DNA from: Candidatus Limnocylindria bacterium
GTDB lineage: Bacteria; Chloroflexota; Limnocylindria; P2-11E
NCBI GenBank assembly: GCA_036518215.1
Contig: DATDNP010000201.1
Coordinates: 24,448 to 88,447, forward strand
Direction: 5' to 3'
DNA: 64,000 nt
The translations under genes and the position numbers were made by a program. Positions 26,530-64,000 of the stretch are shown here, one piece after another (within the stretch, counting starts at the first letter, position 1; the number at the start of each line of letters is the position of its first letter). The notes beneath the pieces are model-generated. The model was not told the origin of the DNA. It saw only the letters and a list, made by a program, of their open reading frames with translations, and searched no databases.

Positions 26530-26576
26530 GGTAGCCCCAGCCCTGATACTTCGCCACAAGGGGAAACACAGAGAGC

Positions 26577-31420: not shown

Positions 31421-31990
31421 TTGCACGCATCGGTCATCCCGTCGATCAACGATCTCGGCGGGCTCGTCACCTATCTCTTCCGCAATCCCTACCTGTTCAT
31501 CTCGTCGACCACGGTGATGACGAGCGGGCTCCTGCTCGGTGCCGTCGTCGTGAGCATGCTTCCGCGCCGGCTCGGCATCATGCACGCCGTCGCCCCGACG
31601 CTCGCCGTGATCCTCGCCTACTTCGGGTTCGGGAGCTTCGCGCTCTCCACGGAGATCCTGCTGCGATTCCACAGCAGCATCCCCTACGAGACCGAGGTGC
31701 AGTTCGTGAGCGGCGTCGGGCATCTCCTCGAGGCGCTCGTCGGACTCGCCGTGCTGTTCCCGCACGTGCGCGATCACACGAAGCTCGAGTGGCTGTGGGC
31801 GCACACGGTCGCCCTCACCTACTGGACGTTCCAGGTCGCCGTCCTCACGCCGCCGTGGTTCTCGTTCCAGGGGCAGCGCGAGCTCGTGACCATGAGCGCG
31901 CTCCTCATGCTCGCGATCGCCGGAGGCGTGAACGCCGCGCTGTGGGTCCGTGCGGCGCGGCAGGCGCGGCGCCCTGTGGCGGTGCGGTGA
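31421..31990 (+). CDS. Hypothetical polytopic membrane protein
   Basis: TTG start. About 5 hydrophobic helices. No family recognised. The stop overlaps the tRNA 3' end. Confidence 0.4.
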   Translation: MHASVIPSINDLGGLVTYLFRNPYLFISSTTVMTSGLLLGAVVVSMLPRRLGIMHAVAPTLAVILAYFGFGSFALSTEILLRFHSSIPYETEVQFVSGVGHLLEALVGLAVLFPHVRDHTKLEWLWAHTVALTYWTFQVAVLTPPWFSFQGQRELVTMSALLMLAIAGGVNAALWVRAARQARRPVAVR

Positions 31991-32060
31991 GCCGCCCGGG
32001 ATTCGAACCCGGAACCAAAGGATTAAAAGTCCTCTGCTCTGCCGTTGAGCTAGCGGCCCG
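31988..32060 (-). tRNA. tRNA-Lys (anticodon UUU)
   Basis: The reverse complement folds as a cloverleaf. Acceptor GGGCCGC/GCGGCTC (one G-U pair), D-arm GCTC..GAGC, anticodon stem GAGGA/TCCTT, loop CTTTTAA, T-arm CCGGG-TTCGAAT-CCCGG, discriminator A. CCA is not encoded. Confidence 0.85.
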
Positions 32061-32240: not shown

Positions 32241-32828
32241 ATGTCAAAGGAAGCCATCGCAAAGGTCATCCAGCGCTCGGTCAGTGACGCGGCGTTCCGC
32301 GGGCAGCTCGCGACGGACCCAGCGGGCGCGCTCCGCGGTTACGACCTCACCGATGATGAGAAGGCGGCGCTCCGGTCGCCCGACGCGCGGCGTTTGAGCG
32401 GTTACGGCGTCGACCAGCGCATGAGCAAGGCGTTCGTTCTCGGATTCGGCACCGCGGCAGTCACCGCCGTCACATCGAGCGACCTGCACGGCACGGTGCA
32501 GAGCCCCGACGCGGCCGAACGCAACATGCCGTTCCTCGCGACGGAGAGCACAAGCGGCGTGCAGAGTCCAGACGCGATCGATCGCAACGCGGCGTTCAGC
32601 GCCGACGCGACCAGCGGGACGACCGCGCAGGAGCCCAGGGACATCGCCCCGGTCGACATCGGCGGCACGGATTCGATCGTCCCGTCCGACGCCGGCCACG
32701 GTCTGCGCGGCGATCTGCTCGAAGGCGGCATGATCGACGAGGGCGCGACGATGGGCGTCGAGACGCACGACGCCTCCGGTCTGGTACCGCCGGGCGGCGA
32801 CAGCGCCGACACGAACATCGAGCCCTGA
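32241..32828 (+). CDS. Protein with a Nif11/NHLP-like N-terminal leader domain and a Ser/Thr/Asp/Gly-rich C-terminus (paralog of the gene at 63704)
   Basis: MSKEAIAKVIQRSVSDAAFRGQLATDPAGALRGYDLTDDEKAALRS resembles Nif11 / nitrile-hydratase-leader-peptide RiPP precursor domains. The C-terminal 120 aa are low-complexity with no Cys. Confidence 0.5.
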   Translation: MSKEAIAKVIQRSVSDAAFRGQLATDPAGALRGYDLTDDEKAALRSPDARRLSGYGVDQRMSKAFVLGFGTAAVTAVTSSDLHGTVQSPDAAERNMPFLATESTSGVQSPDAIDRNAAFSADATSGTTAQEPRDIAPVDIGGTDSIVPSDAGHGLRGDLLEGGMIDEGATMGVETHDASGLVPPGGDSADTNIEP

Positions 32829-32942: not shown

Positions 32943-33752
32943 ATGGACACGACGGTGCAGTCCACCGCGGACGCGAGCCAGGTCAGCGAAGGCATCTACG
33001 TCTACTGCATCATCGAGAGCCCCGAGTCGCGGACGTTCGGGAAGATCGGCATCGGCGGTCGCGGCGACGACGTGTTCACCGTCCATTACAAGGAGCTCGC
33101 CGCGGTCGTGAGCCGGACGCCGCTCATGGTGTACGACCCGACCCGGGAGAACGCGCTCACCCACGAGCACGTGAACGAGATCGTGATGATCGACAACGGC
33201 TTCACGCCCGTGCCGATGAGCTTCGGGACGCTGTTCAAGACCGAGGACGACATCGTCGAGTTCCTGAAGGACACGTACGACGCGCTGCGCGACGTGCTCC
33301 GGAAGATGAAGGACAAGCTCGAGTTCGGTCTCAAGGTGAACTGGGACCGCGACATGGTGCTCGCGGACGTGGAACGCGACTACGAGGAGATCCGGCGGCT
33401 GAAGGCGCAGATCGAGAGCGATCAGCAGAGCTCCACGTACTTCGCTCGCATGCAGCTCGGCCGTCTCGTCGAGCAGGCGCTCGCCGAGAAGTCCGAGACG
33501 TTCGTCCGCGAGATCTACGACGAGCTTCGGGAAGCCGCGATCGCCTCGCGCTCGAACAAGGTCATCGGCGATCGCATGATCATGAACGCCGCGTTCCTCG
33601 TCGAACGCGAGAAGGCCGACTTCTTCGACAAGAAGGTGCAGGAGATCGGCCGGCGCTACGAGGGCAAGCTGAAGTTCACGTACACCGGTCCATGGCCGCC
33701 GTACAACTTCGTCACGATCCGGCTGCAGCTGGAGCGGAGCGCCGGGGTCTAG
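32943..33752 (+). CDS. gvpF: Gas vesicle protein GvpF/GvpL family
   Basis: GIYVYCIIESPE... at the N-terminus and TYTGPWPPYNFV at the C-terminus are hallmarks of the GvpL_GvpF family. Confidence 0.85.
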   Translation: MDTTVQSTADASQVSEGIYVYCIIESPESRTFGKIGIGGRGDDVFTVHYKELAAVVSRTPLMVYDPTRENALTHEHVNEIVMIDNGFTPVPMSFGTLFKTEDDIVEFLKDTYDALRDVLRKMKDKLEFGLKVNWDRDMVLADVERDYEEIRRLKAQIESDQQSSTYFARMQLGRLVEQALAEKSETFVREIYDELREAAIASRSNKVIGDRMIMNAAFLVEREKADFFDKKVQEIGRRYEGKLKFTYTGPWPPYNFVTIRLQLERSAGV

Positions 33753-33754
33753 CC

Positions 33755-34081
33755 GTGCTCCTGCGCCTGCTCACCCTCCCCATCAGCGGTCCCATCGCCG
33801 GCATCCGCTACTGCCTCGAGAAGGTCGTCGAGGTCGCGGACCGCGAGATGTGGGACGAGGAACCCGTGCGCGAGCAGCTCATCCTCGTGAACCAGGCGTA
33901 CGAAGAGGGACGTCTTCCCGAAGAGGACTTCCGCGAGCGCGAGGCCGAGCTCCTCGCACGGCTCCGCGAGATCCGCGAGCACACGAAGGCGCGGGCGCGC
34001 GCCGACGCGGAAGCGCAGGCGGGCGCCGCGGTCGACGAGAAGCGTCGCGTCGTCATCGACGTCCCGGACGAGCTCGAGTGA
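33755..34081 (+). CDS. gvpG: Gas vesicle protein GvpG
   Basis: GTG start (VLLRLLTLPISGPIAGIRYCLEKVVEVADREMWDE...EEGRLPEEDFREREAELLARLREIRE) matches the GvpG pattern. The upstream extension from 33692 was rejected. Confidence 0.75.
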   Translation: MLLRLLTLPISGPIAGIRYCLEKVVEVADREMWDEEPVREQLILVNQAYEEGRLPEEDFREREAELLARLREIREHTKARARADAEAQAGAAVDEKRRVVIDVPDELE

Positions 34082-34106
34082 GCCGCACGCGTCCGGCGGC
34101 GCGCGC

Positions 34107-34883
34107 ATGACGCTGCAGTACGTGTACGGCATCGTCCCCGCCGCCGAGGCGAACGCCGTCGACGGCGCGGCGATCGCCGGCCTCGATGGAGGTCGCGTGC
34201 GAACGATCGTCGAAGGCCCGTTCGCCGCGGCCACGAGCGAGGTGAGCGCGGAGGAGTACGGGAGCGCGTCGCTCAACGATCGCGTCGCGGATCTCGAGTG
34301 GCTCACGCCGCGGGCCGCGACCCATCAGGCCGTGAACATGCGTCTCCTCGACGTCGCCGGCACCGTCCTTCCGCTCGCGTTCGGCGCGCTCTACCACGAC
34401 GATGCGCGCGTCCGCGGGATGCTGCGGGAGGACCTCTCGTCGCGAAGCGCGCGCATGCGCGAGCTCGCGGGGCGCGCCGAATGGGTCGTCACGGTGTCGC
34501 GCGAGGTAAGCGCGGTCGCCGCGGCCGACGAGGACGTCCATGCGCTCGAAGAGGAGATCGCGAAGGCGACACCCGGCAAAGCGTTCCTGCTCGAGCGAAG
34601 GCGCGCGAGCGTCGCGAGCGCGGCCGGCGAGCGCGCCGACGCGGATGCCGCGCGACGCGCGCTCGCGCTCCTCACTCCGGTGAGCGAGCGGACGTATCGC
34701 GAGCCCGTGGCGCGCGGTGGCACGGATGTCGTCGTGCTCCGCGTGTCGCTCCTCGCGGCGCGCGACCGCAGCGACGCGGTGGACGGCGCGATCGCCGCGG
34801 TCCGCGAGGACCTCGCCGGCGCGGGATACCACGTGCGCGCGACGGGTCCCTGGCCGGCATACCGCTTCGGATCGCTGCCGTGA
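34107..34883 (+). CDS. gvpL: Gas vesicle protein GvpL/GvpF family (second copy)
   Basis: TLQYVYGIVPAAEA... at the N-terminus and ATGPWPAYRFGSLP at the C-terminus. Confidence 0.85.
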   Translation: MTLQYVYGIVPAAEANAVDGAAIAGLDGGRVRTIVEGPFAAATSEVSAEEYGSASLNDRVADLEWLTPRAATHQAVNMRLLDVAGTVLPLAFGALYHDDARVRGMLREDLSSRSARMRELAGRAEWVVTVSREVSAVAAADEDVHALEEEIAKATPGKAFLLERRRASVASAAGERADADAARRALALLTPVSERTYREPVARGGTDVVVLRVSLLAARDRSDAVDGAIAAVREDLAGAGYHVRATGPWPAYRFGSLP

Positions 34884-35077
34884 GGGACGACGTCGCGACA
34901 ACCGAGATCCCGCTCGTCGAGATCATCGACCGGCTGCTCGACCGAGGCGTCGTGCTCGCCGGCCGCGCCGTGATCTCCGTCGCAGGCGTCGATCTCATCG
35001 AGCTCCGTCTCAACGTCGTGCTCGCCTCGGTCGACGCGCTCGCGCGGAGCGATCGGCGGATCGCGGAGCCGAGGTGA
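34880..35077 (+). CDS. Small GvpA/GvpJ-family protein (GvpS-like)
   Basis: GTGA overlap with the gvpL stop. 65 aa. LVEIIDRLLDRGVVLAGRAVISVAGVDLIELRLNVVLASVDAL matches the GvpA/J core. Confidence 0.7.
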   Translation: MRDDVATTEIPLVEIIDRLLDRGVVLAGRAVISVAGVDLIELRLNVVLASVDALARSDRRIAEPR

Positions 35078-35721
35078 CGCTCCTCGTCCGCGCGATCGTT
35101 CGGGCGAGCGATCTCGACCGCGTGGCCACCGACGACGACATCGTCGCGATCCGCGCGGCCGACCTCGCCGCGCTGGCTTCGCGCATCGACGGGCCCGTGA
35201 GCGCGACCGAGAGCGCGCTGCGCGGCCACGACTCGCTCACGCGGAGCATCCACGAGCGCGTCGCCTCGCTGCCGGCTCGCTTCGGCCAGCTGTTCGAGAG
35301 CGAGGACGACGTGGTCGCGGCGATCGAAGCGCGCGCCGCGACGCTTCGCGAGGGGATCGCGACCGTCGACGGACGCGTCGAGGTGGCGATCACGTTGCGA
35401 TGGCGCGAGCTCTCGCGGCCCAGCGCGAGCGTCGACGGGTCACCCGGACATGCGTACATGGCGCAGCGCGCGGCGGATCTCGCGCTCGCACGCCGAGCGG
35501 AAGCGATCGCCGCACGCCTCGTCGACGAGATGGCATACGAGCGAGCGCATGCACGTCTCAAGACTTGCCCGCGGCCGGGGGTGGCAGCGATAGTTGCCAT
35601 CTTGGTCGACCGAGACGACGTGAGCGACGTGCGCGAGCGCGTCCGCTCGTTCGGAGCCTGTTCGAGCGAAGTCACCGCCAGCGTGGACGGCGTCTTCGCT
35701 CCGTACTCGTTCGCGTCGTGA
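35074..35721 (+). CDS. Gas vesicle protein GvpF/GvpL family (third, divergent copy)
   Basis: GTGA overlap. LLVRAIVRASDL... at the N-terminus and VDGVFAPYSFAS at the C-terminus parallel the two other GvpF/L copies. Confidence 0.65.
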   Translation: MTLLVRAIVRASDLDRVATDDDIVAIRAADLAALASRIDGPVSATESALRGHDSLTRSIHERVASLPARFGQLFESEDDVVAAIEARAATLREGIATVDGRVEVAITLRWRELSRPSASVDGSPGHAYMAQRAADLALARRAEAIAARLVDEMAYERAHARLKTCPRPGVAAIVAILVDRDDVSDVRERVRSFGACSSEVTASVDGVFAPYSFAS

Positions 35722-36035
35722 CCGACCTCACGCTCGAGCTCGAGGAAGTGCGCGCGGAGCTCGCGCGGGTGAGCGCGCAGCTTCCCGAGCGTATCGACGT
35801 CGACCCGGACGACGTGGAGCGGGGCCTCGCCGGTCTCGTGCTTGGACTCGTGGAGCTGTTGCGGCAGGTGCTGGAGAAGCAGGCCGTGCGACGGATGGAG
35901 GGTGGGAGCTTGACGGATGAAGAGATCGAGCGGGTCGGCCTCGCGCTCATGAGGCTCGAGCGGAAGGTGCGCGAGCTCGCTGAGCACTTCGGCCTCACCG
36001 AGGACGACCTCCGGCTCGGGCTGGGCGCGTCATGA
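35718..36035 (+). CDS. gvpK: Gas vesicle protein GvpK
   Basis: GTGA overlap. DVDPDDVERGLAGLVLGLVELLRQVLEKQAVRRME matches the GvpK pattern. 105 aa. Confidence 0.75.
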   Translation: MTDLTLELEEVRAELARVSAQLPERIDVDPDDVERGLAGLVLGLVELLRQVLEKQAVRRMEGGSLTDEEIERVGLALMRLERKVRELAEHFGLTEDDLRLGLGAS

Positions 36036-36337: not shown

Positions 36338-36340
36338 GAC

Positions 36341-36622: not shown

Positions 36623-36631
36623 CCGCCCGCG

Positions 36632-47818: not shown

Positions 47819-47820
47819 CC

Positions 47821-50882: not shown

Positions 50883-50902
50883 TCGTGGCTGAGGGAGCAG
50901 AG

Positions 50903-52080: not shown

Positions 52081-55000
52081 GTGGGGGATCAAGGGACGGC
52101 CCGGGACGAACGGCGCGTGGCCGAGCTCGAAGCCGAGCTCGCGCGGGCGCGCGAGCAGCAGGCCGCGATCGCCGGGGTGCTGCAGGCGATGGCGGGATCG
52201 CACGCCGACGAACAGGCCATCCTCGACGCGATCGCGACGAGCGCCGTCCGGTACTGCGGCGCGAACGACGCGCAGGTCTGGCTCGTCCGCGGCGACGAGC
52301 TCGAGCGCGCCGCGCATCACGGCCCGGTCGCGAACCTCGAGGGACGGATCCGGCTCGACCCGACGTCCGTCGCGGGACGCGCGATCGGCGAGCGCCGCAC
52401 GATCCACATCAGCGACGTCCTCGGTCCCGAGGGCGATGCGTATCCGCAGACACGCGCGCGCTTCGCGCAGATGGGCCACCGCGCGCTGCTCGTCGCCCCG
52501 GTCGTGCGCGACGGGGTCGCGATCGGCTCGCTCAACCTGCGGAAGCACGCGCCCGAGCCTTTCACCACGGAGCAGATCCAGCTGCTCGAGGCGTTCGCGG
52601 ACCAGGCCGCGATCGTGATCGAGAACGTTCGCCTGCACCGCGAGACGACAGCCTCACTCGAGCGGCAGACGGCGATCAGCGACCTCCTCGGCACGATCAG
52701 CCGATCGGCGTTCGACCTCGATGCCGTCCTCACCACGATCTGCGTCCGCGCCGTGGCGCTCGTCGGCGCACAGGGCGCGTCGATCGGGATCCGCGAGGGC
52801 GACGAGATCGTCATCATCGCGACCGGCGGCGGCCCGGCGACGCTCGGCAAAGGCGAGCGCTGGCTGATCGACGACACCACCGTCGGCGGACGTGCGTTCC
52901 TGGACGGTAAGCGCCACTACGCTCCCGATGTCACAAAAGACCCGGCGCTTCCCCAGGGAGGGGCGCAGACCCGTCTCGCGATCCCATTCGTGCGCGACGG
53001 CACCGTGACCGGTGTGCTCTTCACGGCACACCGCGAGGCGAACGCGTTCGACGAACGCGACATCCAGCTGCTCGAGGTGTTCGCCGATCAGGCGGCCATC
53101 GCGATGGAGAACGTACGTCTCTACCGCGAGACGAAGGAGTCGCTCGAGCAGCAGACCGCGATCAGCGAGATCCTGCAGGTGATCTCGAGCAGCCCGACCG
53201 ACATACAGCCTGTGCTCGACGCGATCGCGCGGAACGCGGCGCGTTACTGCCTCGCGGAAGACTGCGGCGTAGCGCTCATCCGTTCCGACGGCCTGCTCGA
53301 GCAGGTCGCGCAGTACGGTCCGATCGCGCTGGACATCGCGCCATGGCCGGTCGATCGCACCTCCGTGCGTGGCCGCGCGATCGTGGACCGGCAGGTGATC
53401 CACGTACCGGACATGGCCTCCGAGAGCGAGGCCGAGTACGCCATCGGCGTTCGGCGCTCACGCGAGCTTGGCCAACGCTCGATACTCGCCGCGCCGCTCC
53501 TGCGAGAGGGCAGGCCGCTCGGCGCGATCGGGCTGCGACGCACCGAGGTCCGGCCCTTCACGGACAAGCAGATCGCGCTGCTGCGCACGTTCGCAGATCA
53601 GGCCGCCATCGCGATCGAGAACGTCCGCCTGTTCAACGAGACGAAGCAGGCGCTCGAGCAGCAGACCGCGATCAGCGAAGTGCTGCGCGCGATCTCGAGC
53701 TCGCCGACCTCGTCGCAGCCGGTCCTCGATGTCGTGGCCACGAACGCCGTGCGCTTCTGCGAGGCCGAGCACGCCGTCGTGTGCCTCATCCGCGACGGGC
53801 TCCTGACGCCCGTCGCCCACGGCGGCCTCGACTGGGAGCCCGTGAAGCCGTTCGTCATCGACCGCACGACGGTGACCGGTCGCGCGGTCGTGGACCGACG
53901 GATCACTCACGTCGCAGACCTCTGGGCGCTCGAATCCGAGTATCCGCTCGGCTATGCGCAGGCGCGCGAGGGCAACGAACGCGCGCTCGTCGCCGCGCCG
54001 CTCATGCACCAGGATGAGGTCGTCGGCGCGATCATCCTCCGGCGGACGCACCCGACGCCGTTCACCGAACGACAGATCGATCTGCTCGCGACGTTCGCCG
54101 ATCAAGCCGCGATCGCCATCTCGAACGTGCGCCTCTTCAACGAGACGAAGGAAGCGCTCGAGCAGCAGACCGCGATCGCCGACATCCTGCGCGTCATCTC
54201 CAGCTCGCCGACCGACCTGCAGCCGGTCGCGGACGCGATCGCGAAGAGCGCGCTCCGTTTCGCCGGCGCAGAGGACGCATCGCTCGTCTTGGTGAAGGAC
54301 GGAGTCTTGGTGCCGGCCTCTCACCGCGGACCGATGGTGATCCCTTTGACGGTGCCGGCGGACCGGCGTTCGGTCACCGGTCGTGCGATCCTCGACCGCA
54401 AGACGGTCCACGTCGGGGACGTCATGGCGAACGAGGAATTTCCGCAGAGCACGGAGAACGCGGCCAGCAGCGGCCAGCGCGCCGTGCTCGCCGCGCCGCT
54501 CATGCGCGAGGGGACGGCCATCGGCGCGATCCTGCTCCGCAAGACCGAGCCAAAGCCGTTCACCGACGGGCAGGTCGCCCTCGTGGAGACGTTCGCATCG
54601 CAGGCCGTGATCGCGTTCGAGAACGTGCGTCTCTTCAATGAGACAAAGGTCGCTCTCGAGCGTCAAACGGCGACGGCGGAGGTCGTCAAGCTCATGAGCA
54701 GCACCGCGTTCGACCTCCGGCGCGTGCTCGACATCGTCATCGGACACGCGACGCAGCTCGCCCAAGCCGACGCTGGGTTCATCTATCAGGCCGACGGTGA
54801 GTACCTGCGCATGACGGCGGCGTACGGCGAGCACGCCGAGGCGATGCGCGAGTGGCAAGCGGAACATCCGATCCGCGGCGACTATCTCGGGTCGGCCACC
54901 GGTCGCGCCTTCGCGGAGCGCCGGACGGTGCACATCTCGGACGTCGAAGCCGACGCGAGCTACACGTATGGCGAGGCGAAGCAGCTCGGCGCTTTCAGGA

Positions 55001-56436
55001 CGCTCCTCTCCGTGCCGCTCGTGCGCGACGATCGAGCCGTCGGCACCTTCTCGCTGTGGCGCACGACGCCACGTCCATTCACGGCAGAGGAGATCGCGCT
55101 CGTCGAGAGCTTCGCCGATCAGGCGCTCATCGCGATCGAGAACGTTCGCCTCTTCGACGAGACGAAGGGCGCCCTCGAGCGACAGACGGCACTGGGCGAG
55201 ATCCTGCGCGTCATGGCCAGCTCGCCCACGAGCGAGCAGCCGGTCCTCGACGCCATCGCCCACAACGCCGTGCGCTTCTCGGGCGCCGAGGACGCGGCGG
55301 TCGCGCTCCGTGGCGAGAAGACATATCGCTTCGTCGCGCACGAGGGTGCGCTCCTACCCGACTTTGGCGTCGATCGGCCGCTCGACGAATCGACGGTGAG
55401 CGGTCGGGCGATGCTCCGAGCCGAGCTCGTCCACGTTCCGGATATCCGTGAGCGCGCCGCGGAGTTCCCGCGCAGCTACGAGTTCGCCCAGCGCAGCGGC
55501 CAGCGCGCGATGCTCTCGGTCCCGATGCTGCACGACGGCACGGCGATCGGCTCGATCGTGCTCCGCCGCAAGGACCCGCGCGCGTACTCCAACGAGGAGA
55601 TCGAGATCGCGCGCGCCTTCGCGGACCAGGCGGCGATCGCGATCGAGAACGTGCGGCTCTTCCACGAGATCCAGGAGAAGAGCGCACAGCTCGAGATCGC
55701 GAACCGCCACAAGAGCGAGTTCCTCGCGAACATGAGCCACGAGCTGCGGACGCCGCTGAACGCGATCATCGGGTTCAGCGAGGTGCTGTTGCAGGGCATC
55801 TTCGGCGACGTGAACGAGAAGCAGCGCGAGTATCTCGACGACGTGCTGTCGTCGGGAAAGCACCTGCTCTCGCTCATCAACGACATCCTCGACCTCTCGA
55901 AGATCGAAGCGGGCCGGATGGAGCTCGAGGTCTCGACGTTCTCTCTCACCGCCGCGCTCGAGAGCGGGCTCACGATCGTCCGCGAGCGGGCCGCGCGGCA
56001 CGGGATCGCGCTCGCAGCCGTGATCCCGGACGATCTTCCGACCGTGGACGCCGACGAGCGCAAGGTGAAGCAGATCCTCTACAACCTCCTCTCGAACGCC
56101 GTGAAGTTCACTCCCGACGGCGGACGCGTGGAGGTGCGTGTGCGTCGCGTAGGCGACGACGTCGAGATCGCCGTGAAGGACAACGGCATCGGGATCGCAC
56201 CCGCGGATCAGCCCAAGGTGTTCGAGGAGTTCCGGCAGGTCGGGCGCGAGCGGTCGCGCGAAGGCACCGGCCTCGGCCTCACGCTCACGAAGCGCTTCGT
56301 CGAGCTGCACGGCGGCCGGATCTGGCTCGCGAGCGAGGTCGGCGCGGGGAGCACGTTCACGTTCACCCTCCCGCTGCGCCGCGACGCCCGCCGCGGGGAC
56401 CCTGCCAGGGAGATCACGCCCGCGCAGCCATCCTGA
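52081..56436 (+). CDS. Soluble giant sensor histidine kinase with seven tandem GAF domains (1451 aa)
   Basis: No TM helix. Seven GAF units of about 180 aa, each followed by a near-identical linker (F(A/T)[30 protein letters not shown]). Then HisKA ([19 protein letters not shown]) and HATPase_c ([16 protein letters not shown]). Confidence 0.9.
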   Translation: MGDQGTARDERRVAELEAELARAREQQAAIAGVLQAMAGSHADEQAILDAIATSAVRYCGANDAQVWLVRGDELERAAHHGPVANLEGRIRLDPTSVAGRAIGERRTIHISDVLGPEGDAYPQTRARFAQMGHRALLVAPVVRDGVAIGSLNLRKHAPEPFTTEQIQLLEAFADQAAIVIENVRLHRETTASLERQTAISDLLGTISRSAFDLDAVLTTICVRAVALVGAQGASIGIREGDEIVIIATGGGPATLGKGERWLIDDTTVGGRAFLDGKRHYAPDVTKDPALPQGGAQTRLAIPFVRDGTVTGVLFTAHREANAFDERDIQLLEVFADQAAIAMENVRLYRETKESLEQQTAISEILQVISSSPTDIQPVLDAIARNAARYCLAEDCGVALIRSDGLLEQVAQYGPIALDIAPWPVDRTSVRGRAIVDRQVIHVPDMASESEAEYAIGVRRSRELGQRSILAAPLLREGRPLGAIGLRRTEVRPFTDKQIALLRTFADQAAIAIENVRLFNETKQALEQQTAISEVLRAISSSPTSSQPVLDVVATNAVRFCEAEHAVVCLIRDGLLTPVAHGGLDWEPVKPFVIDRTTVTGRAVVDRRITHVADLWALESEYPLGYAQAREGNERALVAAPLMHQDEVVGAIILRRTHPTPFTERQIDLLATFADQAAIAISNVRLFNETKEALEQQTAIADILRVISSSPTDLQPVADAIAKSALRFAGAEDASLVLVKDGVLVPASHRGPMVIPLTVPADRRSVTGRAILDRKTVHVGDVMANEEFPQSTENAASSGQRAVLAAPLMREGTAIGAILLRKTEPKPFTDGQVALVETFASQAVIAFENVRLFNETKVALERQTATAEVVKLMSSTAFDLRRVLDIVIGHATQLAQADAGFIYQADGEYLRMTAAYGEHAEAMREWQAEHPIRGDYLGSATGRAFAERRTVHISDVEADASYTYGEAKQLGAFRTLLSVPLVRDDRAVGTFSLWRTTPRPFTAEEIALVESFADQALIAIENVRLFDETKGALERQTALGEILRVMASSPTSEQPVLDAIAHNAVRFSGAEDAAVALRGEKTYRFVAHEGALLPDFGVDRPLDESTVSGRAMLRAELVHVPDIRERAAEFPRSYEFAQRSGQRAMLSVPMLHDGTAIGSIVLRRKDPRAYSNEEIEIARAFADQAAIAIENVRLFHEIQEKSAQLEIANRHKSEFLANMSHELRTPLNAIIGFSEVLLQGIFGDVNEKQREYLDDVLSSGKHLLSLINDILDLSKIEAGRMELEVSTFSLTAALESGLTIVRERAARHGIALAAVIPDDLPTVDADERKVKQILYNLLSNAVKFTPDGGRVEVRVRRVGDDVEIAVKDNGIGIAPADQPKVFEEFRQVGRERSREGTGLGLTLTKRFVELHGGRIWLASEVGAGSTFTFTLPLRRDARRGDPAREITPAQPS
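55690..56380 (+). repeat. Duplicated kinase-core segment (near-identical at DNA level to 59115-59800)
   Basis: The HisKA-HATPase_c regions of the two adjacent kinases share long identical nucleotide runs, e.g. aaccg(c/t)cacaagagcgagttcctcgcgaacatgagccacgagctgcg. This points to a recent tandem duplication. Confidence 0.7.
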
Positions 56437-56523
56437 GAACGGTCGCGGCCCGCCGATCTCGCGAGCGTTACGGCGGCGCCTGACGCGATACAGGCGGGCC
56501 TAGCATGCGGGCGGAGGGAGCGG

Positions 56524-59500
56524 GTGGACCTCGTTCGCCGAGCTGAATGGCTCGTGGAACGACCGTGGCGACTCGTCGCCATCGTGGCCGTCGCAGTCGC
56601 GCTGCCGATCCTTGTCCTCGGTGAGATATCGAACGAACAGACGCGCGCCCGGGACGTATTGGCGCGCGCCGAGGCGGGCGAACGCGATGCGGCAGCGGCG
56701 ACCGAAGTGCTCGCGACCCGACTGACCTCGATCGAACGAGCCGTCGTAACGACGGGCTCCCGGGATCCGCTGGGCGTTCCCACGCCGCTCATCAACGCCG
56801 TCGAGCGACTGGATAGCGAGGCCATCGAGGCGGAGCTCGCTGCGGTGTGGCCGTATCGCGATCCGTCGGTGATCCGGCTGGCGGTCGTCGATCCGGACGC
56901 GCACGTCATCGGGCAGACGCCGCAGCCTCTCAGTGGTGTTCGCACCGTTGCGTCCTATAGCAGCGCGTTCGCACTGAGCGCGCCGGAAGCGAGCGACGTC
57001 CATGTCGACGCGGGCGACCCTCGCCTCGAGATCGGGACGCCCATCGAAGGAGCCGAACGGCGCGGGTATCGCCTCATCGCTACGGTGAGTCTCCGCGCGC
57101 TCGCCTCCGACACACTCGCGCCGCTCGCGTTCGTGTATCCGGACGTGTATCTCATCGACACGCGCGGGCGTCTTGCGCTGCGCGGCTCGCGTTTGCTCGC
57201 GGACGAACAACTCTTGCGCGATGTGACCGCCGCCACGGCTGTGATGCCCGGCGCATCGAGCGTGATCGATCCGATCGATCCTTCGTATCGAATACTCGCG
57301 ACCGCGCGGATGCCCGAATTCGGTTGGTCGATCGTCGTGCTCGACCCGGGCGTCTCCAACGCGACCCTGGATGCCAGCCTTGCGCAGCAGCGTGCACTGC
57401 GGATCGGCCTTGTTGTCGTGCTTCTTGTCGGCTCGGTGATCGTGGGCAACACGTCGAGCGCGACGATCCGGCGCCGTCGCGAGGCACAAGAGGCTCTCGA
57501 ACAGCAGGTCGCGACGAGCGCGGTGCTGCGTGCCATCAGCGCGACGCATGACGACGTGCAGGCCGTGCTGCAGTGTGTCGTGGATGAGGCGCTGCGCCTC
57601 TGTGACGCGGAGAGCGCGACCTTCTATCGGAGCGACGGCGAGGATCGCGTGCTCATGGCTGTCGCAGGTCGCCACCCGGAGTCTGTCCCCATCGGCGAGC
57701 GCATCGCGAACACGCCGACGACGCTGCTCAGCTTGGCCCTTCGAGAAGGGAAAACGTTCCACACGCGCGACATGTCGAGTGAGGAGACGCGCCGGCTGGT
57801 CCGGCCCGACGAAACGCAGGAGGAATGGCAGCGCACGATCCTCGCATCGTGGCCAGGACTGTCCCGGCTCGCGGTTCCCGTGATGCAGGATGGCAAGGCG
57901 GTCGGTGTCATCCGCGTCGATCGCCGTGAGCGCGGCGGCTTCACACCGCAGCAGATCAAGCTCATCGAGTCCTTCGCGGCGCAGGCCGCGATCGCGATGG
58001 AAAACGTTCGTCTCTTCAATGAGACGCGAGAGGCGCTCGATCGACAGACCGCCATTAGTGAAGTCCTGAAGACGATCTCGCAGAGCGTCTTCCAACTGGA
58101 CTCGACGCTCCAGACCGTCGTCGAGAACGCGGCACGACTGTGCGACGCGGACGCAGCCTGGATGGTCGAATGGGCCGGTGCGGGCTACACGGGCCTCGCC
58201 CGATACGCGCGCACCCCAGAGATAGCCGCGCTGCTCGAAAGGGCACGTAAGTCGCAGCCCGGCGTCGTCGCTCCAGCCGAACGGCATCGCATCGCCGGCC
58301 GGATGTTCCTCGAACGTCGCACGATCGGCGTGGCTGACATAGCGAACGAGCCGGAGCTCTCAGGGTCATGGACGGCCCTCGATATCGGTGCGCGGTCCGT
58401 GCTCGGCGTACCTGTCGTGAGCGATGGCGTGCCTCTCGCGGGAATCGTGCTTGCGCGGGTTACCGTACGCCCGTTCTCCAAGAGCGAGACGGAACTCGTC
58501 GAGACGTTCGCCGATCAGGCGGCGATCGCCATCAAGAACGTCCGTCTCTTCACCGGTACGAAGGAGGCGCTCGAGCAGCAGACCGCGGTGAGCGATGTCC
58601 TCAAGACGATCAGCCGGAGCGTGTTCGAGCTGGCGCCGACCCTACGCACGGTCGTCGAGAACGCGGCACGCATCTGCGACGCTGATGCCGGCTGGATGAC
58701 TCGCACCTCTCTGTCGGGACACAGCTCGGGAGCGCGCTACGGCCGCACGCCCGAGATCGCACGCGCCGTCGAGCTCGCGTATGAGAGGTCCGTCGGGGAC
58801 GTCTCCGGGCCCGATCCCAGTAGGATCGGGGACCGCGTCTACCTCGAACGGCGGCCGATCGTCGTCGACGACATCGCGGCCGACGCCACCCTCGCGAACT
58901 CCTACATCGCGCACGGGATCAAGTCACGCTCCGTGCTTGCGGTGCCGGTCCTTGGCGACGACGCCGTGCTCGGCGCGATCATCCTCGCTCGTCTGACGGT
59001 GAGACCGTTCTCTGAACGCGAAACGCAGCTCGTTCAGACGTTCGCTGACCAAGCCGCGATCGCGATCCAGAACGTTCGTCTCTTCAATGAGGTCGAAGAC
59101 AAGTCGCGGCAGCTCGAGGCCGCCAACCGTCACAAGAGCGAGTTCCTCGCGAACATGAGCCACGAGCTGCGAACGCCGCTCAACGCGATCATCGGCTTCA
59201 GCGAGGTGCTTCTCCAAGGGCTCTTCGGTGACATCAACGCAAAGCAGCGCGAATACCTCGACGACGTGCTGACCTCCGGGAAGCATCTGCTGTCGCTCAT
59301 CAACGACATCCTCGACCTCTCTAAGGTCGAGGCGGGCCGCATGGAGCTGGAGCTGTCGCGCTTCTCGGTCGCGACGACGGTCGATACCTCGCTCACGATC
59401 ATCCGGGAGCGTGCTGCGCGTCACAGCATCGCACTGAGGGCCGTTCTCCCGAACGATCTGCCCGAGATCGAGGCCGACGAGCGGAAGGTCCGCCAGATCC

Positions 59501-59826
59501 TCTTCAACCTCCTGTCGAACGCCGTGAAGTTCACGCCGGATGGCGGCACAATCAGCCTTCACGTGCGCCGCGAGGCCGGCGGGTTGTGCTTCGCGGTGTC
59601 GGACACGGGGATCGGGATCGCGCCGGAGGATCAGGTGAAGGTGTTCGAAGAATTCCGTCAGGTCGGCCGCGAGCGCGCGCGCGAAGGGACCGGGCTGGGC
59701 TTGACGCTCACAAAGCGCTTCGTCGAGCTCCATGGCGGCCGGATCTGGGTCGAGAGCGAGACGGGAAAGGGCAGCACGTTCTCGTTCACCCTTCCGCTGA
59801 CGCAGCCGTCGGCGGCGCCGGCATGA
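56524..59826 (+). CDS. Membrane sensor histidine kinase with an extracytoplasmic sensor domain, three GAF domains and a kinase core (1100 aa)
   Basis: TM helix at about aa 15-35 and again at about aa 290-312, with a ~250-aa extracytoplasmic region between them. Then 3x GAF with the same linker motif and a HisKA-HATPase_c core paralogous to 52081..56436. Confidence 0.9.
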
Positions 59827-60200
59827 GCGACCTCGTTCTCATCATCGAGGACAACGAGAAGAACATGAAGCTCGCGCGCGACCTCCTGCGCTTTCACGGC
59901 TTCGACACGATCGAGGCGACGAGCGCGGAGGATGGCCTCGCGCTCGCGCGGGAGCGACAGCCGCGGCTCGTCCTCATGGACATCCAGCTTCCCGGGATGG
60001 ACGGCGTCACAGCGCTGGGGCGATTGAGGTCGGACGGCACGACCGCCGCGATCCCCGTCGTCGCGATGACGGCCTCTGTGATGAAGGAGGACCGCGAGCG
60101 CTTCGACAAGGCGGGCTTCGACGGGTTCCTCATGAAGCCGATCGACGTGCGCGCGTTCCCGCAGCAGGTGCGCGACGCGATCGCGCGCGGCCGCGCGTGA
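59823..60200 (+). CDS. Single-domain response regulator (CheY-like receiver)
   Basis: ATGA overlap with the kinase stop. [11 protein letters not shown]...[13 protein letters not shown]...KPID. 125 aa with no output domain. Confidence 0.85.
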
Positions 60201-61237
60201 GCGATCGCCCGAAGATCCTCGCCGTCGACGACACCCCGGAGAACCTCCGGCTCCTCGACGCGCTCCTCGCGCCGCAGGGCTACGAGCTCGTGCCGGCGTC
60301 CTCCGGACGCGAGGCGCTCGCGCTCGTGCCGGAGCGGAGGCCGGACCTGCTCCTCGTCGACCTCGTGATGCCGGAGATGAACGGCTTCGAGGTCACCAAG
60401 GCCGTCCGCGCCGACGACACCTGGAAGCATCTGCCGATCATCATCATCACCGCGACGGGCGGCGCCGATCTCGTTCGGGCGCTCGAGGCGGGCGCGGACG
60501 ACTACGTGTCGAAGCCGTTCGACAAGAACGAGCTGCTCGCGCGCGTCCGGTCGCTCATCCGCGTGAAGAACTACTACGACACCGTGCAGCGGCAGCGCGA
60601 GGAGCTGTCGCGCTTCTTCTCGCCCGCGATCGCGCACCTCATCACGAGCGACGAAGGGAAGCGCATGCTCGACGGCCATCGTCGCGCCGTCACGGTCGTC
60701 TTCTGCGACCTGCGCGGCTTCACGGCGTTCTCGGAGACGGTGGAACCCGAGGAGGTGCTGGGCGTGCTGCGCGAGTACCACCGCGCGATGGGCGAGCTCA
60801 TCGCAGCGCACGGCGGCACGCTCGAGCACTTCGAGGGCGACGGCTTCATGGTGTTCTTCAACGATCCGATCGAAACGCCTCAGCACGAGCATGTCGCCGT
60901 GCGTATGGCCGTGGCGATGCGAGACCGCTTCGACGAGCTCGCCGCGCCGTGGCGCAGGAAGGGCTACGACCTCGCGTTCGGTGTCGGCGTTGCGGTGGGC
61001 TACGCGACGCTCGGACGCATCGGCTATGAGGGCCGCTACGACTACGCCGCGATCGGCAACGTGACGATCCACGCGTCGCGCCTCATGGCACGAGCGCAGG
61101 GCGGCGAGATCCTCATCACGCAGCGCCTGAACGCCGCGATCGAGGACGAGTTCGAGACGGCGGCCGTCGGCGAGCTCGAGCTGAAGGGCGTCACACGACC
61201 GGTCGCGGCGTTCAACGTCATTGGGAGGCGGAGATGA
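60197..61237 (+). CDS. Response regulator with a class III adenylate/guanylate cyclase (CHD) output domain
   Basis: GTGA overlap. REC (ILAVDDTPEN...LLLVDLVMPEMNG...KPFDKNEL). CHD (VTVVFCDLRGFTAFSE...GTLEHFEGDGFMVFFNDP...GVGVAVGYATLGRIG). Confidence 0.85.
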   Translation: MSDRPKILAVDDTPENLRLLDALLAPQGYELVPASSGREALALVPERRPDLLLVDLVMPEMNGFEVTKAVRADDTWKHLPIIIITATGGADLVRALEAGADDYVSKPFDKNELLARVRSLIRVKNYYDTVQRQREELSRFFSPAIAHLITSDEGKRMLDGHRRAVTVVFCDLRGFTAFSETVEPEEVLGVLREYHRAMGELIAAHGGTLEHFEGDGFMVFFNDPIETPQHEHVAVRMAVAMRDRFDELAAPWRRKGYDLAFGVGVAVGYATLGRIGYEGRYDYAAIGNVTIHASRLMARAQGGEILITQRLNAAIEDEFETAAVGELELKGVTRPVAAFNVIGRRR

Positions 61238-63366
61238 GCGACATCTACGAGACGATCAGTACGCGGCTCGATTACGGCTCGTTCGTCCCGCGGCCCATCG
61301 GCGATGTCGAGCGCGCGGACCTGAAGCGGCGGGACGGCACGATGTACACCGTCCTGAAGAACCCGCACGGCGACCGTGCCGCCGGCCTCTACATCCGGCT
61401 CGAGCCGGATGACGTCGCGCTCTTCGAGCTGATGGACGGCAACCGCACGATCCAAGACATCCTTGTCAATTACCTGGCGACGCACGGCGTGCTCGCCGTC
61501 GACCGCCTCGCGCGCCTCACGGCCGCGCTGTCGGCGAACGGCTTCTTCGGCGACGAGCGCCCGCGCTTCTACGAGCGCCTCGCCATGAACCGCCAGCTCC
61601 GCGATCCGCTCGTTCGTCTTTCGCTGTCGCTGCGGCGGCTCATCACGTGGGACATCGCGCGCTGGTCGAACGCCGATTCGCTCGTCCAGCGCGTGTACCG
61701 CGCCGGAGCGTGGCTGGCGTTCACGCCCGTCGGCGCGGCGCTCATCGCGGTCCTCTGCGTCGCCGGGATCGTCGCGTGGGTCCGCGAGGTCAGCGTCGGT
61801 CGCCACACGCTCGTCACGCTCGACGGGTCATTCGTGCTCGGGATCGTCGCCCTCATCCTCCTCCAGGTGCTATCGATCTCTGTGCACGAGGCAGGGCACG
61901 CGCTCGCGATCGCGCATTACGGGCGTCGCGTCCGACGCCTCGGTCTCGCGGTCTATTACCTCTTCCCGTGCGTCTACGTTGACAGCACCGACATGACGAT
62001 GGCATCACGAAAGGCGCGCATCGTCGTGTCCCTCGCCGGTCCGGTGGGCGGTCTCACGGTGAGCGCACTGTGCGCATTCGTGGCGATCGCCGACGGCGGA
62101 GTCCTCGGCAGCATCGCCTTCAAAGCATCGTCGCTCTTCCTTTTCCAATTCGCGCTCAACCTCATGCCGATCCTCGAGCTCGACGGCTACTACATCCTCG
62201 TCGACCTGCTCGACGCTCCGCTCCTCCGACAGCGCGCGCTCGCGTTCGCGCGGGGCGGCGTCATGCGGAAGCTTCGACGGCGCGAGCGGTGGTCGCCGTC
62301 GGAGATCGGGCTCGGCGTGTACGGCCTTCTCGCGATCGCCACCTCCTTCCTGATGATCGGCTTGTCGCTCGCGCTCTGGGAGTCACGCGTCTCGATCGCG
62401 GCACGCGAGCTGCTCGCAGCGGGGCCGCTCGGAGCGCTCGCGCTGGCGCTCCTCGTGCTCGTGTTCATCGGTCCACTCATCGTGGCGCTCACGATCCGCG
62501 TGGTCGGCTGGGGCAGGACCTTCGCGAAGGGGCGCGCACGGCGCGTACGCCGGCGTGAGCAGCAGGCGCTCGTCGAACGCGCACGCATCCTCTCGCGCGT
62601 GCCGTTCCTCGCGAGTCTCGCAGGGAATGCGCTCATCGCGATCGCGTCACACCTGAGCGAGGAGCGTGTGGACGCGAATACGAACGTCGTGACGATCGGC
62701 GAGCCCGGCCAGCGTTTCTACGTCGTGCGCTCGGGCCGTCTCGAGGTGCTCGACGCGAGCGGGCGCGTCATCGGCACGCTCGCGCCGGGTGACGGCTTCG
62801 GAGAGCTCGCGCTGCTCGACCACCGGCCGCGGACGGCGACGGTGCGCGCGACCGAGCCGAGCGAGCTCTGGTCCCTCGACCGCGGCCACTTCGAGCGTTG
62901 GATCCGCGAGCGGTACGAGATCGCCGCGCGGATCCGCGCGTCGGCTGAGGAGCGCGACATGCTCGCGAAGCTGCCCTTCTTCAAGGGACTGGAGCCTGCC
63001 GAGCTCGACCGGATCGTGCCGCATCTCAAGCTGACTCGCGTCGCCGCGGGCGAGGCGGTCTTCCGCGAAGGCGATCCCGGCGACCGCTACTACGTCATTC
63101 GCGAGGGCGAGGCGGACGTGAGCGTCGGCGGGAGCCTCGTGGCCCACCTCGGACCGGGCAGCGGCTTCGGGGAGCTCGCGCTGCTTTTCGGGAAGCCGCG
63201 TACAGCCACGGTGACCGCTACGAAGGATCTTGTCCTGGCCTCCCTCGGGCGCAGCGAGTTCGGCTGGCTCGTACGGGAATCAGGTGAGACGATGGGTGAG
63301 TTCAAGACACGAACGGCGCATTATGTCGGTTCCGCCGGCCTCGGGACGGCGGTGAGGGGGGCTTAG
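61234..63366 (+). CDS. Site-2 protease (peptidase M50) fused to two C-terminal cyclic-nucleotide-binding domains
   Basis: ATGA overlap. M50 zinc motif (HEAGHAL) in a TM helix and the second S2P motif (NLMPILELDG), with multiple TM helices. Then 2x CNB with GFGELALL...RTATVRA and GFGELALLFGKPRTATVTA. Confidence 0.85.
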   Translation: MSDIYETISTRLDYGSFVPRPIGDVERADLKRRDGTMYTVLKNPHGDRAAGLYIRLEPDDVALFELMDGNRTIQDILVNYLATHGVLAVDRLARLTAALSANGFFGDERPRFYERLAMNRQLRDPLVRLSLSLRRLITWDIARWSNADSLVQRVYRAGAWLAFTPVGAALIAVLCVAGIVAWVREVSVGRHTLVTLDGSFVLGIVALILLQVLSISVHEAGHALAIAHYGRRVRRLGLAVYYLFPCVYVDSTDMTMASRKARIVVSLAGPVGGLTVSALCAFVAIADGGVLGSIAFKASSLFLFQFALNLMPILELDGYYILVDLLDAPLLRQRALAFARGGVMRKLRRRERWSPSEIGLGVYGLLAIATSFLMIGLSLALWESRVSIAARELLAAGPLGALALALLVLVFIGPLIVALTIRVVGWGRTFAKGRARRVRRREQQALVERARILSRVPFLASLAGNALIAIASHLSEERVDANTNVVTIGEPGQRFYVVRSGRLEVLDASGRVIGTLAPGDGFGELALLDHRPRTATVRATEPSELWSLDRGHFERWIRERYEIAARIRASAEERDMLAKLPFFKGLEPAELDRIVPHLKLTRVAAGEAVFREGDPGDRYYVIREGEADVSVGGSLVAHLGPGSGFGELALLFGKPRTATVTATKDLVLASLGRSEFGWLVRESGETMGEFKTRTAHYVGSAGLGTAVRGA

Positions 63367-63367
63367 G

Positions 63368-63583
63368 GTGGACTGCTGGGTCTGCGAGCGCACGGCGCTC
63401 GGGGCGTGCCGGTTCTGCGGCCGCGGCACCTGCCGCGACCACGCGCGCACGCACCCCTTCGTCATCGAAGTGTTCCGCGGACGCAAGCACGAGACGCTGC
63501 GGGCGCTCGTCGTCGAGGACGCGCTCCACTGTGGCGTGTGCAAGCCCCGCAGCGAGCCCGTCGAGCTCCCCGAGCTCGAGTGA
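63368..63583 (+). CDS. Small Cys-rich zinc-ribbon-like protein
   Basis: GTG 1 nt after the protease stop. 71 aa with CWVCE..13..CRFCGRGTC..25..HCGVCK and an acidic tail. This is a predicted Cys4-type zinc ribbon. Confidence 0.5.
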   Translation: MDCWVCERTALGACRFCGRGTCRDHARTHPFVIEVFRGRKHETLRALVVEDALHCGVCKPRSEPVELPELE

Positions 63584-63703
63584 GGAGGCCTACCTGAGAG
63601 CTACTGTCATCACGATCACACAGGGGCAGCCATGGCGATGGACGTATGGGGAGCGTGGCGGGGCCAGAGTTCCGTCAACAGGCGATGGGAGGCGAAACAG
63701 AGA

Positions 63704-64000
63704 TGTCCAAGGAAGCTCTCGCGAAGGTGGTCCAGCGGGCGATCAGTGACGCGGCGTTCCGCCGTCAGATCTCGAGCGATCCGACGGGTGCGCTGCGCGG
63801 CTTCGACCTGACGTCGGACGAGACCGCGGCCATCCGCGCGGCGGACGCTGGCAAGCTCAGCGCGCTCGGCATCGACCAGCGCATGAGCAAGGCGTTCACC
63901 CTCGGCGGGAACGCGGACTCTCCGAGCATGGTCGGCGGCACCGACATCAACACGCTCGGCAGCGCGATCACGACCGGAAGCGCGGGCACGGCCGGCGGCG
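63704..64000 (+). CDS. Protein with a Nif11/NHLP-like N-terminal leader domain (5' part; paralog of 32241..32828)
   Basis: MSKEALAKVVQRAISDAAFRRQISSDPTGALRGFDLTSDETAAIRAADAGKLSALGIDQRMSKAFTLGG is about 60% identical to the N-terminus of the 32241 gene. It runs off the window end. Confidence 0.5.

Follow-up and report, generated by a model that had tools for sequence, protein, structure and literature searches.

Repeat-tailed Os1348-family proteins and a linked cyclic nucleotide-binding membrane protease in Candidatus Limnocylindria

A stretch of 64,000 nucleotides from a Candidatus Limnocylindria bacterium (contig DATDNP010000201.1, positions 24,448 to 88,447; hereafter the window) contains two paralogous genes, A and B, that encode proteins of the Os1348 family of the NHLP clan. 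Each protein appears to consist of a folded six-helix head of ~68 residues and a disordered, polyacidic, Cys-free repeat tail. Gene B lies behind an operon for a site-2-type intramembrane metalloprotease with two cyclic nucleoside monophosphate (cNMP)-binding domains, and this linkage recurs in related genomes. We suggest, with a probability of about 0.55, that the Os1348 domain is a docking handle for this protease, which would be gated by cNMP and guided by an RRE (RiPP recognition element; RiPP, a peptide synthesized on ribosomes and modified after translation). The protease would act in cis on the gene B product, and gene A would represent a dispersed paralogue. The two genes and their parts are located as follows.

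32241..32828 (+): gene A, Os1348-family NHLP-clan protein, dispersed paralogue without an adjoining protease (open reading frame (ORF), NF038399)
32241..32444 (+): putative docking ('leader-like') domain of gene A, amino acids (aa) 1-68 (BLASTP, alignment, AlphaFold2 (AF2), Foldseek)
32406-32435 (+): family-invariant domain end G-V-D-Q-R-M-S-K-A-F in gene A (invariant alignment columns)
32496..32525 (+): tail motif copy 1, VQSPDAAERN, gene A aa 86-95 (same motif in relatives)
32559..32588 (+): tail motif copy 2, VQSPDAIDRN, gene A aa 107-116 (orthologue conservation)
32631..32666 (+): second tail motif type, EPRDIAPVDIGG, gene A aa 131-142, single copy (repeated in relatives)
63703..64000 (+): gene B, Os1348-family NHLP-clan protein, cut by the window end (ORF, NF038399, L004 orthologue)
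63703-63906 (+): gene B domain (BLASTP, NF038399)

The shared domain and the repeat tails

Gene A was read from its translation as a 195-aa ORF, and 99 aa of gene B are visible before it runs past the window end. The initial annotation had gene B begin at 63704; the gene exists, but the frame from that position is interrupted by stop codons and the start hence lies one base earlier. BLASTP aligned the two proteins without gaps over residues 1-68 (47/68 identities, 69%; 87% positives; E 4e-34), beyond which the sequences are unrelated. This confirms that the paralogues share their N-terminal ~70 aa, as a 68-residue common domain, although the identity of ~60% first given for it was too low. Exactly two copies of the domain, those of A and B, were found in the window by tblastn. 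GC content at third codon positions (0.87 for gene A and 0.91 for gene B) is like that of the neighbouring genes in a window of 69% GC; the codon-position GC signature of true genes holds in both frames, tails included, and GGAGG-type ribosome-binding sites precede both genes. Consensus scans for promoters and terminators around A and B found none and are uninformative at this GC content. Gene A is 100% identical to a protein from a metagenome-assembled genome (MAG) listed at NCBI as 'Os1348 family NHLP clan protein [Candidatus Limnocylindria bacterium]'. Full-length ORFs of 193-195 aa are kept in three distinct orthologues (P0002-P0004, 79-83% identical to gene A), in which motifs are more conserved than spacers; gene A is therefore not decaying. 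Judged by these comparisons, A and B are real genes under selection, and the possibility that they are rapidly decaying, non-conserved ORFs is contradicted by the full-length orthologues and the codon-position signature. A gene B orthologue of 213 aa (P0098) occurs in another locus (L004) with the same gene order as at gene B, and from it we infer the full length of gene B.

Both proteins score above the curated NCBIfam cut-off of 40 bits for NF038399, Os1348 family NHLP clan protein (58.1 bits for gene A, 62.1 bits for gene B), and gene A keeps all invariant residues of the family domain. Stricter models of leader peptides gave scores below cut-off: 14.0 and 14.7 bits for A and B with TIGR03793 (NHLP leader; cut-off 50.9), and 30.6 and 33.8 bits with Frankia_peptide, a RiPP family associated with ATP-grasp ligases (PF14407; cut-off 48), with no ATP-grasp gene in the window. 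No match to Nif11 (PF07862 / TIGR03798) was found for A or B at E up to 1, and the Nif11 threshold was passed only by a short lineage-II relative (25.7 bits versus 23.8). The Pfam matches of gene A are confined to Frankia_peptide and LigA. Hence, the resemblance to NHLP and Nif11 leaders noticed in the initial annotation holds at the level of the clan (NHLP/Nif11/LigA-like), through NF038399 and the fold of 6lk7, but not at the level of the strict models. The profile searches thus speak against an unrelated family for the domain. The idea of a new precursor class was overstated, as the protein family is already curated and named and gene A already carries the Os1348 name at NCBI.

In the AF2 model of gene A (40 homologues, moderate confidence), six helices span aa 3-67 and nothing after them is structured. 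Foldseek placed the Os1348 crystal structure 6lk7 at ranks 1-2 for the gene A domain (probability 0.97, E 0.05, 28% identity), followed at ranks three to five by the docking domain of the borosin SonA; LigA-like domains were also matched. A phmmer search of gene A against the PDB matched 6lk7 at E 0.03. ECOD places these domains in one group with NHLP, Nif11 and ComX (PMC12353581). The prototype, Os1348 of Pseudomonas sp. Os17, is an 85-residue stable dimer (crystal structure 6LK7) linked to antibiotic activity, and its cluster neighbours are a GNAT protein, an HEXXH protein and a SagB-type dehydrogenase (PMC7726476). A phmmer search of 1.84 billion cluster representatives returned 508 relatives at E up to 0.001; among the best 150 of the 508, the domain lies nearly always at residues 1-68 of proteins of 100-540 residues. 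A Gly-Gly leader cleavage site is not conserved: gene A has VLGFG and gene B LGG, and the position is not GG family-wide.

The tails are, as first described, rich in Ser, Thr, Asp and Gly, with Ala among the abundant residues, and free of Cys. Gly, Ser, Thr, Ala, Asp, Asn and Pro make up 64-77% of the tails examined, the net charge ranges from -14 to -43 (-17 for the Cys-free tail of gene A), and lengths run from 100 to 450 residues; AF2 predicts these tails to be disordered. Every tail examined is Cys-free bar one that looks frameshifted (L057:10001 onwards); it turns basic and Cys-containing mid-repeat (+6 net, 3 Cys), probably through a frameshift or assembly error. We found internal repeats, defined as at least two copies of a 9-mer at ≥7/9 identity, in 211/266 tails but in only 6/266 shuffled controls. 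Short motifs are repeated 2-8 times per protein, their type and copy number differ between relatives, and several unrelated motif types can be mixed in a single tail. Relatives of gene A carry the VQSPDAxxRN motif in 2-6 copies and the EPRDIAPVDIGG motif in 1-4. Between gene A and its orthologues, motif copy 2 is identical at 11-13 of 14 positions, against 3-6 of 10 in the adjoining spacer. The gene B subfamily has LGNA(L/I)TxGDD-type repeats, complete in the 213-residue orthologue, and other subfamilies use the cassettes NAVQRFELGG, SAINDDPDGFLAAN, VRAGDDWKF, AVTDAHDRGD, RAxxDSEPxDLRG and ILRDPENPANARGYIGD. By eye, the cassette (I/V)(N/H)DDP(D/N)GFL (P0117, L025_1389, L029_10001) fits the EF-hand-type calcium loop pattern N/D-x-D-x-D-G-x-hydrophobic, and many other cassettes have an acidic-Pro-x-Asp core (SPDA, EPRD, DPDN, SEPxD).

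The protease module at gene B and its relatives

The genes upstream of gene B and the features discussed below are these.

61234..63366 (+): site-2-type intramembrane metalloprotease, 710 aa (Pfam M50, cNMP_binding, NCBIfam daptide_HExxH)
61294-61536 (+): predicted RRE-like domain of the protease, ~aa 21-101 (AF2, Foldseek)
61885 (+): HEAGH, protease aa 218-222 (motif)
62158 (+): NLMPILELDG, protease aa 309-318 (motif)
63368..63583 (+): cys71, 71-aa Cys/His-rich putative two-zinc finger protein (conservation; weak Pfam hints)
63605..63620 (+): Crp/FNR-type palindrome TGTCATCACGATCACA, 98 nt upstream of the gene B ATG (9/10 consensus positions)
60197..61237 (+): receiver fused to a class III nucleotidyl cyclase, its stop overlapping the protease start (Pfam Response_reg and Guanylate_cyc)
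59823..60200 (+): stand-alone response-regulator receiver (Pfam Response_reg, 84.5 bits)
52081..59826 (+): two giant multi-GAF histidine kinases heading the operon, ORFs 52081-56436 and 56524-59826 (seven and three GAF domains, with HisKA and HATPase_c)

The protease matches Peptidase_M50 (PF02163; 34.5 bits versus a cut-off of 27.2) and has about six transmembrane-like segments by hydropathy, with the HExxH and NxxPxxxLDG motifs intact. Two C-terminal copies of cNMP_binding (PF00027, 137 bits) follow, and both phosphate-binding cassettes, GFGELALL...RPRTATV, are intact at aa 521 and 644. In NCBIfam the protease is matched best by daptide_HExxH, over model positions 25-366, with 122 bits, far below the 300-bit cut-off of that model of the daptide intramembrane metalloprotease (NF041824). 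For residues 1-140, AF2 predicted strands 26-31, 37-43 and 52-56 followed by helices 58-66, 73-84 and 89-101 (predicted local confidence, pLDDT, 87-92), and the four top Foldseek matches in the PDB are the RREs of TglI and of leader-bound TbiB1 (probability 0.96-0.98). The predicted fold and the alignment with the daptide model thus point to an RRE-like domain at the protease N-terminus. The daptide enzyme itself joins an RRE to a site-2 protease, and serves to remove the leader (doi 10.1101/2023.03.08.531785).

Cyclase, protease and cys71 are joined by overlapping or abutting stop and start codons. The gene B ATG lies 119 nt past the end of cys71, the last gene of the operon, in agreement with the ~120 nt first reported between gene B and the M50 protease operon. 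The most conserved member of the module is cys71, 71-96% identical across loci versus 56-87% for the protease. It has exactly 71 residues in each distinct sequence from the class I loci defined below; Cys3, Cys14, Cys17, Cys22, His25, Cys55 and Cys58 are invariant, and Cys6 is present in all but one aligned sequence. Pfam gave only weak hints, to C5HCH and DUF2180, and homologues of cys71 were also found outside Limnocylindria. In Limnocylindria loci the protein has a conserved acidic C-terminus, PVELPELE; we set this end aside as a candidate RRE ligand, its likeness to daptide ELExMEAP being one seen by eye only.

The palindrome upstream of gene B reaches a score that was equalled or exceeded (at least 9/10) in 2 of 2900 shuffles, and in ~50/58 regions upstream of family genes the best palindrome match falls at -93 to -111. 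Some of the related loci likewise have a receiver-cyclase immediately upstream of the protease, and the two-kinase arrangement recurs in L010-L014. The two kinases of the window are cytoplasmic, and kinases at related loci reach 2862 residues. A stand-alone 214-aa cNMP-binding protein with no detected DNA-binding domain is encoded ~5.5 kb upstream of gene A (26074-26718, -).

We compared the surroundings of the domain in other genomes. On contigs of five different family members, the protease and the 71-residue ORF are followed by between one and three Os1348-family genes, with a Crp-type regulator in convergent orientation; the tails at these contigs are unrelated to one another, and the gene order is constant. 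Scanning one genome per species with the domain alone gave 44 loci, nearly all from Limnocylindria or Chloroflexota MAGs. The protease and 71-aa ORF lie directly upstream of the Os1348-family gene in 37/44 of them, and a Crp-type gene follows wherever the contig extends. A reverse search from cys71 gave 80 metagenome loci; a cNMP-binding protease ends ≤150 nt upstream of cys71 in 63 of the 69 with enough upstream sequence to be assessed. Four arrangements can be distinguished, and in three of them Os1348-domain genes accompany the protease-cys71 pair.

Class I, 14 loci: the Limnocylindria arrangement of protease, cys71, Os1348-family genes and Crp-type regulator
Class II, 5 loci: M16 peptidase, extracytoplasmic function (ECF) sigma factor, zf-HC2 anti-sigma factor and a 75-residue Os1348-like protein (73.1 bits)
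Class III, 31 loci, actinobacterial-looking synteny: no Os1348 domain; a 38-53-residue ORF and a co-directional Crp-type gene
Class IV, 4 loci: Os1348-domain ORF directly upstream of the protease

In class II the anti-sigma factor itself has, as its C-terminal half, an Os1348 domain (NF038399, 43.4 bits versus 40) that ends in LDERVSK. Soluble zf-HC2 anti-sigma-Os1348 fusions stand at L067:10110-10529 and L070:10072-10527, beside the ECF sigma factor, M16 peptidase, protease and cys71. The class III small ORF, mostly unannotated, reads MAEKKI(S/T)PKA...AATRV(T/S)KK and continues in basic, Lys/Arg-rich short tandem repeats (L064:8375-8518 and L062:5460-5591; beyond these two, ~28 further loci in all, L143:4346-4504 among them). 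In the actinobacterial-looking contigs it is invariably next to the protease-cys71 pair, and it may be the counterpart of the Os1348-family protein in these loci. We also considered the class III ORFs as relatives of the VQSPDA repeat; they were missed by the hidden Markov model of the N-terminal domain and have no NCBIfam match, and the idea is kept as a lead only. By eye, an R-[VMI]-[ST]-K element is common to all partner proteins.

We detected neither a maturase (radical SAM, YcaO, lanthipeptide, ATP-grasp, P450 or methyltransferase) nor an ABC/C39 exporter in the window, and the gene tables examined for related loci show none of them repeatedly. The search of other genomes proposed in the initial annotation thus returned the protease, cys71 and the Crp-type regulator as neighbours of the domain, with no maturase or exporter in the gene tables examined. 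The suggestion that A and B are exported peptides fits poorly with these results, as no exporter, signal peptide or maturase is found in the window or the related-locus gene tables. In several Limnocylindria genomes the protease locus is set among purine-catabolism and sugar genes (window 47497-52048; L005, L010, L014), which encode adenosine deaminase, GH15, xanthine-dehydrogenase-type subunits, amidohydrolases, an M20 peptidase, a transthyretin-like protein and OHCU decarboxylase.

A processing model and its alternatives

We propose that the multi-GAF histidine kinases activate the response-regulator cyclase and thereby raise cNMP, probably cyclic AMP (cAMP). The Crp-type regulator would then switch on the substrate gene through the palindrome at -98, and, separately from transcription, cNMP binding to the protease would license cleavage. 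The kinase, cyclase and Crp genes would in this way give both transcriptional and post-translational control. The Os1348 domain would deliver the gene B product to the protease encoded just upstream, and gene A, all invariant domain residues being kept, may be handled in trans. The cut is expected at or near the invariant ...D-Q-R-M-S-K-A-F... domain end, where it would part head from tail. The freed tail might yield multiple short peptides; alternatively, by analogy with the anti-sigma fusion, cleavage might destroy a multivalent sequestering protein. The earlier suggestion that A and B are substrates of the M50 protease draws indirect support from the tight, conserved synteny and the RRE-like domain.

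Anti-sigma factors are the kind of protein that site-2 proteases cleave. Because the domain is fused to one in class II, it seems to mark proteins for the protease rather than to define a natural product. More broadly, the NHLP/Os1348 fold might be a portable targeting tag for a cyclic-nucleotide-gated, RRE-guided protease outside natural-product biosynthesis. One lineage would carry the tag on anti-sigma factors, and Limnocylindria on fast-evolving polyacidic repeat proteins. A single cAMP pathway would then combine RiPP-type leader recognition with regulated intramembrane proteolysis, its output being either many short peptides at once or the freeing of factors that the multivalent tail had bound. 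This generalization is tentative, and we give it rather less than an even chance.

Several observations weigh against the docking-handle reading. The Foldseek E-values for the RRE are weak (0.04-0.08), a Pfam search of the protease N-terminus for PqqD/RRE found nothing, and a 20-sequence profile of this region against the PDB gave chance-level matches only. The usual cleavage sites of site-2 proteases are in transmembrane or strongly hydrophobic segments; hydropathy analysis found no such segment in the products of gene A or cys71. A Crp site for gene A was considered and rejected, the best match (6/10 at -99) being the mode of the shuffles and thus background. Class III, the commonest arrangement outside Limnocylindria, lacks an Os1348-domain gene; the Os1348 domain is therefore not an obligatory partner of the protease. 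Finally, cys71 rather than the Os1348 protein could be the ligand of the RRE.

One alternative is that the Os1348-family proteins are partners or regulators, acting for example on the protease or the Crp-type regulator as dimeric adaptors or as inhibitors, and that the protease has its true substrate in cys71 or in some unlinked membrane protein. Os1348 is indeed a stable dimer, class III loci lack the Os1348 domain, cys71 is present in all classes and more conserved than either neighbour, and its invariant acidic end loosely recalls, by eye, the ELExMEAP bound by the daptide RRE. However, a fixed regulatory partner would hardly be expected to have a hypervariable, rapidly expanding tail, loci with one to three divergent copies are typical of substrates or precursors, and the anti-sigma fusion fits a substrate tag better. 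We therefore regard this explanation as unlikely.

A second alternative is that A and B are classical multi-core RiPP precursors, with an Os1348 leader, repeats that are cores modified by unlinked enzymes, and the protease as the leader peptidase acting before export. Membership in the NHLP clan, the co-occurrence of a leader-like domain with an RRE-bearing protease related to the daptide and YydH/LiaK leader peptidases, the cassette-like repeats with conserved motifs and variable spacers and copy number, and the antibiotic activity tied to the prototype (PMC7726476) would all suit such precursors. Yet the window holds neither a maturase nor an ABC/C39 exporter, and none recurs in the related-locus tables examined; tails of 100-450 residues, without Cys and with several unrelated motif types per protein, also weigh against this reading. 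The same domain on an anti-sigma factor, and control by kinase, cyclase and Crp, which is unusual for a RiPP cluster, make this explanation improbable.

It is very improbable that the cyclase and the cNMP-binding protease form a Pycsar-like anti-phage module with the repeat proteins as accessories or decoys. PADLOC models for PycC and PycTIR/Effector do match the cyclase (60197-61237) and the cNMP-binding domains (61234-63366) with 50-72 bits, but these matches cover generic cyclase and cNMP-binding domains only and leave gene A, gene B and cys71 without a match. The cyclase, moreover, has a receiver domain and is under histidine-kinase control, and the synteny with housekeeping and purine-catabolism genes is stable across many genomes.

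The surroundings of gene A bear on a last alternative and include two further features.

32943-36622: gas-vesicle cluster of gvpL/F, gvpG, two more gvpL/F and two gvpA/J-type genes, with gene A on the same strand 114 nt before it
31986-32059 (-): tRNA-Lys(UUU), between a 189-aa membrane ORF and gene A (Rfam)

Gene A does stand beside a gas-vesicle cluster, as first noted, and the arrangement occurs on three metagenome contigs, which encode an identical protein and hence come from the same organism. The motif set of gene A is found inside the protease locus in other genomes (L010-L013), and other unlinked Os1348-family paralogues have unrelated neighbours. The adjacency to the gas-vesicle genes thus looks incidental, and the unlinked paralogues speak against a functional link. 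A role of gene A as an accessory gas-vesicle protein, transcribed together with the gvp genes as its position on the same strand immediately upstream of gvpL/F might suggest, is extremely improbable in view of the absence of any match of gene A to a Gvp family in Pfam, the relatives with the same motifs (type 1) inside the protease locus elsewhere, the unrelated neighbours of unlinked paralogues, and the tRNA-Lys boundary just upstream. This tRNA, the only Rfam match around gene A, may be an insertion boundary for gene A and the gvp cluster together. The membrane ORF (31421-31990) belongs to no family, and beyond the gvp cluster lie genes for a PAS/GAF histidine kinase and for a hybrid kinase (36623-39803).

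Comparison with known systems and biological meaning

Os1348 is one of the closest known systems: it belongs to the same NF038399 family, is the top structural match with an all-helical six-helix domain, and its cluster likewise holds an HExxH metalloprotease-like protein. However, it has only 85 aa and almost no tail, its HEXXH protein is soluble, and it is under Gac/Rsm control with no site-2 protease, cNMP-binding domain, zinc-finger protein or Crp-type regulator nearby. In turn, the GNAT, HEXXH and SagB-type dehydrogenase proteins of the Os1348 cluster are not found next to A or B. The daptide peptidase MpaP (NF041824) shares with the protease of the module an RRE-like domain N-terminal to an intramembrane HExxH protease (homology at 122-145 bits including the RRE region). 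The window protease differs by its two added cNMP-binding domains and by a score far below 300. Daptide substrates are short peptides with ELExMEAP leaders and a C-terminal Thr, unlike gene A, which ends in ...NIEP, and the MpaB/C/D/M set (aminotransferase, alcohol dehydrogenase, methyltransferase) is not present in the window.

RiPP precursors with NHLP or Nif11 leaders, and SonA, fall into the same LigA-like clan as the A/B domain, and SonA illustrates that such a domain can be a folded docking module for its processing enzyme. In contrast to NHLP/Nif11 precursors, A and B lack a maturase and the pairing of a Gly-Gly site with a C39 transporter, and their tails are ten times the typical core length. 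Multi-core precursors are known from cyanobactins, some graspetides and fungal KEX2-processed repeat proteins. These resemble the present tails in their short conserved cassettes, variable spacers and copy numbers that differ between close relatives; unlike them, the tails mix unrelated cassette types within one protein, and no cassette-flanking protease sites or modifying enzymes were identified.

Among site-2 proteases of regulated intramembrane proteolysis, SpoIVFB, which has a nucleotide-sensing CBS domain, cleaves pro-sigma-K, and RseP cleaves anti-sigma factors. The module resembles these systems in combining a site-2 protease, a cytoplasmic ligand-binding domain and small accessory proteins, and in lineage II an anti-sigma and ECF sigma factor adjoin. 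It departs from them in that the sensor consists of two cNMP-binding domains, and that a soluble NHLP-clan domain, together with an RRE, would take the place of a transmembrane helix in substrate recognition.

Full-text searches found no description of the module (RRE/site-2 protease/two cNMP domains with zinc finger, Os1348 protein and Crp-type regulator), of the repeat-tail architecture or of the Os1348-anti-sigma fusion. Those on site-2 proteases with cNMP-binding domains returned nothing relevant, nor did literature searches on RiPPs in Limnocylindria. The family itself is known; novelty seems to lie in the surrounding system and in the architecture of the repeat tails.

If the docking-handle reading is correct, it would join RRE recognition of RiPP leaders with site-2 protease signal transduction, two fields that are usually separate, and would provide the first proposed substrate and trigger for a cNMP-binding site-2 protease. 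It would also provide a function open to testing for the Os1348 family, the prototype of which is so far known by its crystal structure but not by its role. For Limnocylindria, an abundant soil and freshwater class known here from MAGs only, it would mean a widespread cAMP output pathway, with hypervariable tails in which cassettes evolve unusually rapidly downstream of a very conserved processing machine.

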